Source: Escherichia coli (lineage in GTDB: Bacteria; Pseudomonadota; Gammaproteobacteria; Enterobacterales; Enterobacteriaceae). From it: a DNA stretch of 64,000 nucleotides. Below, piece by piece: positions 41,347 through 44,412 of the stretch; within the stretch, counting starts at the first letter, position 1, and the number at the start of each line of letters is the position of its first letter. A model generated the notes under the pieces. That model ran no database searches. It worked only from the letters and a program-made list of their open reading frames with translations, and had not been told where the DNA came from. The stretch lies in assembly GCF_003334305.1 (NCBI RefSeq), contig NZ_QOWS01000026.1; one strand, given 5' to 3'. The translations under genes and the position numbers were made by a program.

Positions 41347-42612
41347 TTAAGCTTCAGCCGCCAGCATCTCTTTCTTACGTTGGCTAATACGCTTAACCAG
41401 CATTACGGAAACCACCGCACCACAGAATGCGAAGCAGGCCATAATGCCAAACACGATTTTGTAGCCAATAATCCCCGGATTTAAATCCAGAATGTAGCCA
41501 TACAGACTGAAGCAGAACATCGCCGGGGCGTAACCAATAAAGCTACCCAACGCCATCGCCGCGCCTGTTTTATTTTCAGCAATTTTTGCTTCGCCGATAG
41601 GTGCAAAAAATACGGCTCGCTGTGTAAAGACTATCGCGCCAAAGCCCAGCGTACATGCCATCCCTAAATAGACCGGCATACTTTCGTGCGGCAGCATAAT
41701 CAACAGTACGAGCGCAGCGGTACTGATGATAAAGGTGTAGCATAGATATTTACTCGGCGATTTCAGGATCTTATCTGAAATCATGCCACCAATCGGTCCA
41801 CCAATCATTTTCAGACAGTATTGGTTAATGATGCCGTAAGCCCCCACCAGCGCAACGGGCAATAGATAGATGTTTTTCAGGAATGGAATGAAGAATGTCA
41901 GGCCACAGTAAACCGCGTAAACGAAGAAGACGTTAAAAGCGATAAGCCAGATGGTTTTGTCTCTCAGCACCGAGGTCATACTGGTGTTTTGCGATGCTCC
42001 GTCTTCTTTTTTCACCTCAACGGACGGTGCCTCTTCTTTGTCATTCAGGACAAAGAAAATAATAATGCCTACGGCAATCACAATAAGGGAATAGAACCAG
42101 ATGCCTGCTTTAAAACCCAATAAGCCACTGCCAAACCAGGTAAATACTGCCAACGCAGAAAATGCCACCACGGTATCGACAATGCCACGCCCTGTTTCGA
42201 AGAAGCCAAACAACCGACCTTGTTGTTCGCTATTGCCCAATCGACTTACCGACTTGAGCAAGACCGGCCAGTTCATCATGTCGCAAGTAACGCCAAATAG
42301 CGCCCAGACAAAGAGGATGCCCCAATACCCCGGCATTGTCGTCAAATAAACACCCAGTAATCCTGTCGCAATGAGTGAGAATGACATGGTGTATCTGCGC
42401 GGTAGTTTATCGGCAAAATAAATAGACAGAAAAAAACCCACTGTCGTGACAAATGAGTTTACCGACATAGCATTACCAATTTGACCATTGGTCAAATGGA
42501 AATATTCCTGCATCGGGATATAAAACGCATCTTTCAGCGACGGTAATTTATAAATTGTACCGCCACACAATGTTAATAGACTAAATAACGCCCATTTCTT
42601 TTTCGTGAGCAT
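41347..42612 (-). CDS. yihN: MFS-family transporter
   Basis: 421 aa, 12 predicted TM segments. Confidence 0.85.
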   Translation of the reverse strand: MLTKKKWALFSLLTLCGGTIYKLPSLKDAFYIPMQEYFHLTNGQIGNAMSVNSFVTTVGFFLSIYFADKLPRRYTMSFSLIATGLLGVYLTTMPGYWGILFVWALFGVTCDMMNWPVLLKSVSRLGNSEQQGRLFGFFETGRGIVDTVVAFSALAVFTWFGSGLLGFKAGIWFYSLIVIAVGIIIFFVLNDKEEAPSVEVKKEDGASQNTSMTSVLRDKTIWLIAFNVFFVYAVYCGLTFFIPFLKNIYLLPVALVGAYGIINQYCLKMIGGPIGGMISDKILKSPSKYLCYTFIISTAALVLLIMLPHESMPVYLGMACTLGFGAIVFTQRAVFFAPIGEAKIAENKTGAAMALGSFIGYAPAMFCFSLYGYILDLNPGIIGYKIVFGIMACFAFCGAVVSVMLVKRISQRKKEMLAAEA

Positions 42613-42713
42613 AACATCCCCTAAGCGATTTTTAAAATCACTGTTTTAAAGGCAATAAGATACCGACCATTCATATGGAATGGTTTTATTAACTGCGTAT
42701 GAGTTAAAACTTA

Positions 42714-43694
42714 TTAGTGGTTCAGAAGATGGTTTGCCTCTTGTTTGATTTGTTGTAGTACGTTACGCACATGATTTATCTGATTAATTGCATCTTCTTT
42801 TTCTTTACGTAACCGCGCATCCAGTAAATGATTTTCTGGCAATGGTGTTTCACTCATCTGGCGATAAGGGATCCACGGATTATCATCTTCGTCTTCAAAG
42901 CGGAACGCCGGCGCATAGTAATCAACCTCTTCTTCCAGGCCATATGCCGTCACCTGCGGCTCATCATCACCCAGGCATATAAGGTGCGTTAATAACGCTT
43001 TGAACGGCATATCACCCTGACCTGAAATACAGGCTTTATGACCCAGGCCACCCGGTTCTTTAACGATCAAGGCATCTTTGATATGGACCTGGGTAATATG
43101 CGGCGCCATCGTTTTTAAAGCGTCGATGGGATGCTCATTTGCATTGATCATGTTCGCAAAATCAAACAGTAAGGAAAGAGATTCCATCTCACTTTCTTTG
43201 ACCAGCGACACCAGCTCATGGCTTTTTAAATCTTCATGCTGTTCGATCGTAAAAGTCAGGCCGCTGTCCTGATACGTTTCCCGTACATAGGCAATGTCGT
43301 TAGCGATGATCGATAATACGTCGCGCAAATTACCTTCATAACGTGGATAAAAACGTACGGACGATGCCCCAGTTTTCAACGCAATGGCGACGGCTTCGTC
43401 AATAGATGCCTTATCTGAGGCGCTGGTTTCAATATGAATATCAAGGTTCAGACGGCGGGCTTTATCTCCAAAGGCAGAGAGTTCTTTATCGTCCATATTA
43501 CCAAGAGAAAAACGCTCGCCATCCAGAACATGGATTTTGACGCCACGTAGATTATTTTCACTTGCGATATCAAGTAAATCAGCAGGCAACACTCTTTCCA
43601 GCCGCATATTTAAATGAAAGGCATAAGCATGTAAATAAAGAGGAAGAGTGTCGACACGTTGTAGAATCTTTCTTGCGTTATTTATTGTCACCAT
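42714..43694 (-). CDS. yihM: Sugar phosphate isomerase/epimerase (xylose isomerase-like TIM barrel) family protein
   Basis: 326 aa MVTINNARKILQRVDTLPLYLHAYAFHLNMRLE. Confidence 0.8.
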   Translation of the reverse strand: MVTINNARKILQRVDTLPLYLHAYAFHLNMRLERVLPADLLDIASENNLRGVKIHVLDGERFSLGNMDDKELSAFGDKARRLNLDIHIETSASDKASIDEAVAIALKTGASSVRFYPRYEGNLRDVLSIIANDIAYVRETYQDSGLTFTIEQHEDLKSHELVSLVKESEMESLSLLFDFANMINANEHPIDALKTMAPHITQVHIKDALIVKEPGGLGHKACISGQGDMPFKALLTHLICLGDDEPQVTAYGLEEEVDYYAPAFRFEDEDDNPWIPYRQMSETPLPENHLLDARLRKEKEDAINQINHVRNVLQQIKQEANHLLNH

Positions 43695-43701
43695 AAAACA
43701 C

Positions 43702-44412
43702 CTACAGATTAATGATGAGGTCTACGGCCTCAAATCGCCAATATTCAATATCTATCTGGACAATATTGCCTTGCTGGTCGGCGCGATGCTTTTCAATTAA
43801 GATCGCTGGCATACCCGCAGAACCGCCAAGATACTTGCTGATATCGCCCGGCATTCTGACGGGTTTGAAAATCAATTTTTTTACTACCGTCTCTTTTTGG
43901 TAGCACTTTTCCCAGACTGCAGAAAATGAGTGGTTTTCAAGTTGTTCAATAAAACCCGGAGCAACTTCAGGATTAATATATGTTTCGTGATAGAAAACTT
44001 TATGTCCTTCCAGCGCCCCCCAGCCGGTGATGCGATAGAGTTCAGTTGATGGTGTCACTGCAATCAGTGGCGCGAGCGTCTTGGGAATATCGCTGGTACG
44101 GTTTTTCTCGGTAAACCCCCAGGAAGGCTCTCGTCCTTGCTCAATTGCGGCCCGCTGAAAGCTCGCCGACAACTCCGGACTGTAATTAAATCGCGGCTGG
44201 GTCACGAACCACCCCTTACGATCCTTACGGAAGATTTTGGATTCTGCCTCGAGGTTCAACAACGCCTGGCGCAGCGTCATACGTTTAATGCCCAGCAGTT
44301 CTCCCAGCTCTCTTTCTGAAGGGAGTTTTCCACCCGGCGTGGTGATGCCATCTTTCAACCACCGATCCAGTTTCTCTTTTGCATTTTCTACGGTGGATTG
44401 ATTCTCCGCCAT
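43702..44412 (-). CDS. yihL: GntR-family transcriptional regulator
   Basis: 236 aa, N-terminal GntR HTH (PSERELGELLGIKRMTLRQAL). Confidence 0.85.
   Translation of the reverse strand: MAENQSTVENAKEKLDRWLKDGITTPGGKLPSERELGELLGIKRMTLRQALLNLEAESKIFRKDRKGWFVTQPRFNYSPELSASFQRAAIEQGREPSWGFTEKNRTSDIPKTLAPLIAVTPSTELYRITGWGALEGHKVFYHETYINPEVAPGFIEQLENHSFSAVWEKCYQKETVVKKLIFKPVRMPGDISKYLGGSAGMPAILIEKHRADQQGNIVQIDIEYWRFEAVDLIINL

Follow-up and report, generated by a model that had tools for sequence, protein, structure and literature searches.

The genes yihL, yihM and yihN occupy positions 41347-44412 of a 64,000 nt stretch of Escherichia coli DNA (contig NZ_QOWS01000026.1; hereafter the window, whose coordinates are used as position numbers throughout). 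All three are intact open reading frames (ORFs) on the minus strand and lie exactly within these limits in the ORF list. yihL (43702-44412) encodes a 236 aa transcription factor of the GntR family, HutC subfamily, that is predicted to be an autorepressor of the cassette. yihM (42714-43694) encodes a 326 aa xylose-isomerase-like TIM-barrel enzyme of an uncharacterised subfamily, and yihN (41347-42612) encodes a 421 aa major facilitator superfamily (MFS) permease, a distant relative of the organophosphate:phosphate antiporters (OPA). The 3.5 kb around yihLMN is 100% identical to that of E. coli strain A7 and 98-99% identical to that of most other strains. The RefSeq annotation names the three products a GntR family regulator, a member of the sugar phosphate isomerase/epimerase family and an MFS transporter, and places typA on one side of the cassette and ompL on the other. 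An earlier note on this DNA had described three co-oriented genes for a regulator, a TIM-barrel enzyme and an MFS permease; the ORFs, the match to strain A7 and the RefSeq annotation bear out this layout, and the Pfam assignments (GntR and UTRA, AP_endonuc_2, and MFS_1) bear out the protein classes. The genes themselves are already catalogued y-genes, and a repressor-enzyme-transporter cassette is of a familiar kind. What is new here is a conserved operator matched to published chromatin immunoprecipitation-exonuclease (ChIP-exo) data, a conserved CRP site, the autonomy of the cassette and a substrate class based on gene context.

The yihL stop codon lies 7 bp from the yihM start and is overlapped by the yihM Shine-Dalgarno sequence; on reading the sequence, plausible Shine-Dalgarno sequences precede yihL, yihM and yihN alike. 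The yihM-yihN spacer is 101 bp in the window, and a terminator scan of this spacer called none. Across the related loci described below, the gap between yihL and yihM is always between -4 and +17 bp, and the yihM-yihN spacer varies from approximately 20 to 230 bp. With the conserved order and strand, the short yihL-yihM gap and the lack of a called terminator between yihM and yihN, yihN may be co-transcribed with yihLM.

A scan of one genome per species identified 80 loci encoding YihM relatives, in which ORFs were called (with a caller based on GC content at third codon positions [GC3] for the high-GC loci) and clustered. YihN adjoins YihM in 58 of these loci and YihL does so in 53, and all loci with the three genes share their order and strand. 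This arrangement is conserved in about 50 species, and its recurrence in at least 50 species of several classes supports the small functional module that the earlier note had seen. The hosts within the Enterobacterales include Citrobacter, Klebsiella/Raoultella, Hafnia/Obesumbacterium, Serratia, Buttiauxella, Morganella, Edwardsiella, Pragia and Budvicia; beyond this order, they include Aeromonas, Photobacterium, Neisseriaceae and Acinetobacter (the last with yihM, yihN and a copy of the operator described below, but no called yihL). The flanking genes differ by genus (yiiM and cpxA-cpxR, narU, a tyrosine phenol-lyase gene, or a yqhD-type gene), and ompL-yihO-yihP adjoin the cassette solely in E. 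coli and some Citrobacter. Because the order L-M-N is conserved at unrelated chromosomal sites, yihLMN is an autonomous, horizontally mobile cassette, which in E. coli is only incidentally a neighbour of the sulfoquinovose genes.

YihL contains a GntR domain (PF00392, residues 8-70, E 1.7e-19) followed by a UTRA domain (PF07702, residues 91-230, E 2.2e-21), which places it in the HutC subfamily. It aligns over its full length with the NCBIfam models for PhnR, PhnF and HutC. The best match is PhnR (TIGR03337) at 184.2 bits, which is below the cut-off of 296.75; HutC and PhnF score approximately 50 bits. Its nearest relatives in the PDB are NagR/YvoA and DasR, which share the same architecture of a GntR winged helix-turn-helix and a UTRA domain. 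The operator core of the HutC family is GT-N-TA-N-AC, and a perfect palindrome that fits this core, TGGTTTAAACCA, is located at 44426-44437, from -25 to -14 with respect to the yihL ATG. This is the sole exact copy within the window. The same palindrome (or the variant TGGTTTATACCA in one paralogous group) is found at the same place in 52 of the 53 L-M-N loci: the DNA around it is unalignable between genera, yet the operator is retained.

Published data allow this site to be compared with binding in vivo. In ChIP-exo experiments with glucose-grown MG1655, Gao et al. 2021 (PMC8464067, supplementary file 5) report three YihL sites, of which one is strong (4058436-4058459, signal/noise 60.5, nearest gene yihL) and the remaining two have a signal/noise of approximately 5. 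These coordinates are those of an older MG1655 version, as cspA and yihL both give an offset of 1977 bp with respect to NC_000913.3. The MG1655 palindrome (4060422-4060433 in version 3) thus converts to 4058445-4058456, within the strong peak, so that binding of YihL to TGGTTTAAACCA at its own promoter is experimentally supported by published data. YihL looks like a strictly local regulator.

These results bear on a possible link to the neighbouring genes, namely that yihLMN is an accessory to sulfoquinovose or sulfosugar catabolism with ompL-yihOPQRSTUVW and, for example, imports or converts a sulfonated intermediate. The physical adjacency in E. coli and some Citrobacter would fit such a role, as would the rearranged sulfoquinovose region seen in E. 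coli strains that lack yihLMN and the plausibility of a sulfonate anion as cargo of an OPA-like carrier. Against this, most genera have no sulfoquinovose genes near the cassette, the only strong YihL site is at its own promoter, and the partner genes found in other lineages (see below) encode phosphatases and phosphate transporters rather than sulfite exporters or sulfonate enzymes. The cassette is also convergent to ompL, with repetitive extragenic palindromic (REP) elements between yihN and ompL (41257-41346; GCCGGATG...CATCCGGC) that mark its 3' end. We therefore regard this role as highly improbable. The earlier note had set the three genes apart from the sulfoquinovose cluster, and the unrelated housekeeping flanks elsewhere, together with the single strong ChIP-exo site, uphold that distinction.

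Upstream of the operator, a sigma-70 promoter of yihL is predicted at 44446-44475 on the minus strand, with a -35 element TTGCTT (44470-44475), an 18 bp spacer and a -10 element TAAGAT (44446-44451). A consensus promoter scan remained below threshold here; the call comes from reading the sequence and from conservation, as TTGn and TAnnnT elements recur across genera at a constant distance from the operator when upstream regions are anchored on it. With the -35 and -10 elements so placed, transcription is predicted to start near 44439 and the operator would lie at approximately +3 to +14, the position of a repressor site.

Farther upstream is a predicted CRP site (44503-44518, minus strand; AGAGAGCTTTGTCACA) that matches TGTGA-N6-TCACA at 8 of 10 positions and is centred at approximately -71.5, a class I position. 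When the upstream regions are sorted into 26 groups that share less than 60% identity with one another, 20 groups have a CRP-like match of at least 8/10 at a distance of 72-76 bp from the operator, with the general form TGnGA-N6-TCACA; in shuffled upstream sequences, such matches appear in a mean of 0.08 groups and a maximum of 2. A CRP-like site so placed at a fixed distance is the pattern of a catabolite-controlled operon. Two published observations are relevant here: systematic evolution of ligands by exponential enrichment (SELEX) with RNA polymerase holoenzyme puts a promoter in the typA-yihL spacer, and yihL expression clusters with that of AraC, GalS, MelR, RhaR, FucR and similar CRP-dependent sugar regulators. 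Phosphorus scavenging under the Pho regulon was also considered and set aside, as no Pho box was seen by eye upstream of yihL.

YihM matches AP_endonuc_2 (PF01261) in Pfam with an E value of 2e-8. No NCBIfam model matches at E <= 0.001; the PF01261 subfamilies in this collection include L-ribulose-5-phosphate/L-xylulose-5-phosphate 3-epimerase, hydroxypyruvate isomerase, IolE and endonuclease IV. The family is small, with 57 clusters at E <= 1e-30 among 1.84 billion representative proteins, and has a mean column identity of 63% over 44 sequences (down to 44% identity with the E. coli protein). In an AlphaFold2 model (predicted local distance difference test [pLDDT] score of 96), YihM folds into a (beta/alpha)8 barrel in which a beta-hairpin follows strand 7; its C-terminal extension, of approximately 70 residues, ends in a 38-residue helix. 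By profile, the nearest solved relatives are Art22 (1.6e-13), the uncharacterised protein 3tva and the dehydratase AsbF (2e-5). The invariant YihM residues E151-Q-H153, D178 and H204-I-K206 align with the E-x-H, D and H-x-K of AsbF, and the alignments do not show an E-x-H in Art22 or 3tva. E151, D178, H204 and E254 are invariant in the 44 sequences and lie at strand ends in the model, and are putative divalent-metal ligands. YihM is further distinguished by a unique invariant EQHEDL motif and by invariant H22, H27, H55, R114 and R118. This fold constrains the chemistry loosely, to metal-assisted proton abstraction beside a carbonyl or carboxylate, leading to isomerisation, epimerisation or beta-elimination. 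A literature search on Art22 and on links between phosphonate catabolism and the YihM fold found nothing.

YihN matches MFS_1 (PF07690) over residues 33-364 (E 2.7e-26). When a profile of 19 YihN sequences is compared with the PDB, the only relative is SLC37A4, a glucose-6-phosphate/phosphate exchanger (E 3e-4). The lysines K22, K27 and K268 are invariant in YihN, and the alignment to OPA members is too weak to place the phosphate-binding arginines of transmembrane helices 1 and 7. The accumulation of several cationic dyes has been reported to be 10- to 100-fold lower in a yihN knockout. Because YihL is bound at the promoter in glucose-grown cells, standard conditions may leave the cassette repressed, and the dye phenotype would then be surprising; the same result may mean that the YihN pocket accepts a cationic group.

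The dye phenotype also invites a non-catabolic explanation, in which YihN is a general importer or exporter of cationic dyes or drugs, YihM is a repair enzyme of the apurinic/apyrimidinic endonuclease 2 type or a detoxifying enzyme, and the genes are loosely related. Consistent with this, yihM is among the genes listed in one publication as raising resistance to oxidising agents when overexpressed, and the fold of YihM is also that of endonuclease IV. The dye phenotype is, on the other hand, that of a single knockout and may be indirect, and YihM is closer to small-molecule enzymes than to endonuclease IV. A profile comparison of YihM with the E. coli endonuclease IV, aimed at a possible tri-metal phosphodiesterase site, yielded no usable alignment and no support for such a site. 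A further argument against loosely related genes is that they are strictly inherited together with a local repressor that responds to a ligand, and with a CRP site. In other lineages, moreover, yihM lies in operons with ATP-binding cassette (ABC) importers and periplasmic binding proteins, which argues for import for use. This explanation appears very unlikely.

Evidence on the nature of the substrate comes from distant lineages in which YihM is 45-50% identical to the E. coli protein. In these, ABC importers take the place of the MFS carrier and extra genes are present. A HisN-type phosphatase of the IMPase family (243-283 bits, cut-off 275) directly follows yihM in Aminobacter, Ensifer, Rhizobium, Rhodobacter, Defluviimonas, a Rhodobacterales genome and Pontibacterium. 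Such a phosphatase adjoins yihM in five types of arrangement, and a HAD phosphatase does so in a sixth, a low-GC marine contig in which it takes the position directly after yihM; in Marinobacterium, the HisN-type phosphatase is in a divergent operon that shares the YihL operators. Phosphate transporters are found in yihM operons of four arrangement types, as a fusion of Na/Pi-cotransporter and PhoU in Pseudogulbenkiania, Rhodobacter and a Pseudomonadota metagenome-assembled genome, and as PiT with a DUF47 protein in Marinobacterium.

Proteins associated with amines are also encoded near yihM. The binding proteins near yihM are PhnS-like, PotD/PotF-like or Dpp/NikA-like. Several distant lineages retain a YihL-like regulator, of which the Pseudogulbenkiania copy scores 267 bits to PhnR and lies beside a PhnS-like ABC importer. 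MocR-type regulators with a pyridoxal phosphate (PLP)-binding domain are near yihM in alphaproteobacteria and Arthrobacter (in the latter in the order MocR, YihM, YihN-like, so that M and N are paired), and a YheO/DauR-type regulator is near yihM in Proteus and Providencia. In Photobacterium, a canonical RidA (164 bits, cut-off 106) is encoded between yihM and yihN; in Proteus and Providencia, its gene precedes yihN-yihM. On a Gemmobacter aquarius plasmid (9001-10895 of the locus), yihM is translationally coupled to an agmatinase-family ureohydrolase gene, and neither a transporter nor a regulator is encoded close by. In three lineages, the surroundings of yihM include genes for a BetA-type GMC oxidoreductase, an aldehyde dehydrogenase and an NCS1 permease. 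Two themes recur independently across contexts: phosphate release and a primary amine. The phosphate theme is also in line with the similarity of YihN to the OPA family and SLC37A4 and with PhnR as the nearest curated family of YihL.

Because the associations with phosphatases and phosphate transporters, and those with RidA, MocR and amine importers, recur in this way, the substrate belongs most likely to the amino-organophosphates; homology and gene context suggest that it carries a phosphate ester and a primary amine on a core resembling 2-aminoethyl phosphate. Such a core is common to histidinol phosphate (the substrate of HisN), phosphoethanolamine and O-phosphoserine and, with a carbon-phosphorus (C-P) bond, to the PhnR ligand 2-aminoethylphosphonate. 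We therefore favour, at slightly better than even confidence, the reading that yihLMN is a self-contained, substrate-inducible catabolic cassette for an amino-bearing organophosphate.

A simpler possibility is the salvage of a plain sugar phosphate, in which a UhpT-like YihN imports a rare hexose, pentose or tetrose phosphate and YihM converts it, by epimerisation or isomerisation, to an intermediate of glycolysis or of the pentose-phosphate pathway, with no amine and no release of phosphate. The Pfam and RefSeq family names fit this proposal, as do the resemblance of YihN to the OPA family and SLC37A4, the weak matches of distant YihM family members to L-ribulose-5-phosphate 3-epimerase in the NCBIfam scans (the contigs of these members are mostly too short to inform on gene context), and the CRP control, which suits a carbon source; a single enzyme would also suffice if its product were already a central sugar phosphate. 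It leaves unexplained, however, the RidA, the MocR- and DauR-type regulators, the agmatinase-family gene and the amine- or peptide-type binding proteins, and it offers no reason for a dedicated phosphatase and phosphate transporters if the product is glycolytic. YihL is nearer to PhnR than to the sugar-phosphate-sensing HutC members, and the AsbF-like E-x-H of YihM is unseen in the Art22 and 3tva alignments. We consider sugar-phosphate salvage possible but doubtful. The label "sugar-phosphate isomerase-like" given to YihM in the earlier note is accordingly retained in part: the Pfam family name agrees with it, whereas YihM matches no curated enzyme subfamily and the gene contexts suggest an amino-organophosphate.

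Under the favoured amino-organophosphate reading, YihL would keep yihL-yihM (and probably yihN as well) repressed as long as its UTRA domain is not occupied by a small-molecule effector; repression is proposed because the operator overlaps the predicted transcription start. The conserved class I CRP site would make expression cAMP-dependent, as for a carbon source. YihN would import an anionic or zwitterionic small molecule, with O-phosphoserine, phosphoethanolamine or their phosphodiesters as candidate substrates, and YihM, as a divalent-metal TIM barrel, would convert this in one step (isomerisation or beta-elimination) to central metabolites. Breakdown would release inorganic phosphate and, via an enamine or imine, ammonia. 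In E. coli, the products of YihM might themselves be central metabolites (a phosphoserine-type substrate would give, for example, pyruvate, ammonia and phosphate), or the pathway may be completed by housekeeping enzymes.

A number of points weigh against this reading. The E. coli-type cassette has no phosphatase, RidA or phosphate exporter, and the substrate class is extrapolated from homologues of 45-50% identity that could differ in specificity. The fold of YihM resembles those of sugar epimerases and isomerases no less closely than those of dehydratases, and we know of no precedent for the elimination of phosphate from an amino compound by a metal TIM barrel. The full-length match of YihN to the OPA/PgtP subfamily model TIGR00881 scores 70.5 bits, far below the cut-off of 407.75, and a search of the PDB with the single YihN sequence returned no relative. 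With respect to regulation, the promoter, transcription start and CRP site are all predictions, and the view that YihL represses rather than activates is based solely on the position of the operator. RNA polymerase alone selects the typA-yihL spacer in vitro, and the promoter is listed as "constitutive". One published table gives the transcription unit as yihLM, without yihN, and the 101 bp yihM-yihN gap is unconserved and could contain a promoter of its own. Finally, a literature search on yihL, yihM and yihN found no functional assignment and no compound linked to them, in keeping with the earlier note, which had assigned no substrate; one phosphate-starvation paper uses yihL::kan as a linked marker and gives it no other role.

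A bolder version of the amino-organophosphate reading, which we put forward as unlikely, is that YihM represents a new class of enzymes, as a cofactor-independent (non-PLP) and metal-dependent TIM-barrel "aminoalkyl-phosphate lyase or isomerase-deaminase", within a wider scheme that includes a RidA step, phosphate exchange by YihN and a new nutrient route. The substrates would share a 2-aminoethyl-phosphate core, as in O-phosphoserine, serine-ethanolamine or glycerophospho-serine/-ethanolamine diesters and possibly phosphoethanolamine, and the products would be phosphate (or a phospho-alcohol) and an enamine or imine, which RidA would hydrolyse to a keto compound and ammonia. Excess phosphate would be exported by exchange through YihN. 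If true, this would be an unrecognised route by which gut, fish-associated and soil bacteria gain access to phospho-amino compounds derived from the host or diet.

Several known systems resemble the cassette in part. One is PhnR/PhnSTUV/PhnWX, which serves 2-aminoethylphosphonate use in Salmonella: like YihL, PhnR is a HutC-type local regulator for the uptake and breakdown of a small organophosphorus compound (inferred in the case of the cassette). YihL scores 184 bits to PhnR, below the cut-off of 297, and YihN is an MFS carrier rather than an ABC transporter. No PhnW or PhnX is present among the annotated genes neighbouring the cassette in the window or in the related loci, although no search was aimed at them. 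Elsewhere, yihM has phosphatases as its partner enzymes, and these suggest an ester of phosphate instead of a C-P bond. E. coli frlABCDR also combines a HutC regulator, a PF01261 enzyme and a transporter; yihLMN differs in having no kinase or deglycase and in the family of its transporter.

With respect to the OPA antiporters (GlpT, UhpT, PgtP and SLC37A4), YihN aligns over its full length, yet at 70 bits against a cut-off of 408, and antiport is assumed. A carrier of this type with a related cargo has been described: AepP (PMC8316502) is an OPA-type MFS carrier that imports 2-aminoethylphosphonate as a nitrogen source and exports phosphate. The PF01261 enzymes Art22 isomerase, D-tagatose 3-epimerase, IolI and AsbF (a 3-dehydroshikimate dehydratase) share no more than 20% identity with YihM, which differs from them by its EQHEDL motif, its invariant H22/H27/H55/R114/R118 and its C-terminal extension.

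yihL, yihM and yihN are among the remaining genes of unknown function in E. coli K-12, and the 12 bp operator, the predicted CRP-dependent promoter, the list of candidate substrates and the derepression predicted on deletion of yihL make the cassette directly testable. If the substrate is an amino-organophosphate, the cassette would represent a new nutrient niche for enteric, fish- or soil-associated bacteria, and a branch of the large PF01261 superfamily that is so far uncharacterised would gain a reaction; with an ordinary sugar phosphate as substrate, the outcome would be a routine de-orphanisation.

A 166 bp spacer lies 5' of yihL (measured by reading the sequence). The typA intrinsic terminator (44579-44605, minus strand), CCTGCCA-TCGC-TGGCAGG followed by nine T, divides typA from the cassette; it is unlisted by the pattern and consensus scan at the thresholds used, and the call rests on reading the sequence. 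The yihM-yihN spacer contains a hairpin without a U-tract (42666-42684, minus strand; ACCATTC-catat-GAATGGT), the stem of which is retained in Pseudocitrobacter, Pluralibacter and Yokenella; the spacer is unconserved in more distant genera. Folding of the whole spacer is unremarkable (z -1.4), and with this ordinary folding and no conservation between genera, we do not propose that it contains a riboswitch or attenuator. Directly 5' of the yihN ribosome-binding site is an imperfect inverted repeat, AGTGATTTTAAAAATCGCT (42624-42642), which reads GCGATTTAAAAAATCGC in Pseudocitrobacter; its role could be that of a second site of regulation, or of an RNA hairpin covering the start of yihN. In Serratia and Morganella, the yihM-yihN spacers are approximately 220 bp, about twice the E. 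coli length, and have long, structured, repeat-like insertions.

Of 5426 complete E. coli genomes, 4237 (about 78%) contain at least 80% of the 3.5 kb stretch, and approximately 22% are without yihLMN. The median of 21 BLAST places per E. coli genome for the 3.5 kb query is due to the short REP stretch. In E. coli MS8345 (NZ_CP025401.1, 4423075-4435195), one of the strains without yihLMN, typA directly adjoins a yihW-like gene for a DeoR regulator. This is followed by genes for a sugar kinase, yihU, an aldolase, a zinc alcohol dehydrogenase and an MFS transporter, and ompL-yihOPQRS are missing from that stretch; the region is a differently built version of the sulfosugar region.

Variation in the operator and in cassette composition was also observed. 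Single genomes of Citrobacter (e.g. Citrobacter sp. R56) and Buttiauxella (B. agrestis) have two paralogous L-M-N cassettes that are approximately 60% identical, and in one paralogous group the operator is the variant TGGTTTATACCA. This suggests that the substrates are related yet distinct and that the repressors do not cross-react. Marinobacterium and an Oceanospirillaceae genome have four tandem copies of TGGTTTAAACCA at a spacing of approximately 20-26 bp (around 9116-9212 of those loci). These fill the divergent region between a Dpp-type ABC operon and yihL-yihM-NCS1; the Marinobacterium-type ABC operon ends with genes for the HisN-type phosphatase, the DUF47 protein and the PiT transporter. 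In Providencia and Proteus, the order is RidA, yihN, yihM, without yihL and without its operator, and the cassette is preceded divergently by a gene for a regulator with a YheO-like PAS domain and HTH_22.

Other observations concern individual lineages. The coupling of yihM to the ureohydrolase gene in Gemmobacter hints at a guanidino precursor of the YihM substrate. In Arthrobacter, genes for a hydroxyacid dehydrogenase and a glycerate kinase lie upstream, a hint of a three-carbon product; we have not built on this one case. A link to iron alcohol dehydrogenases was rejected: the gene in Pragia is a YqhD-type housekeeping gene whose presence is coincidental, and such a link is possible solely in Acinetobacter. 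Some distant metagenomic YihM-like proteins (P0136, P0169, P0192 and P0202) have hydrophobic N-termini resembling signal peptides and long extra N- or C-terminal regions, which suggests that secreted or membrane-anchored YihM variants may occur among the distant members.

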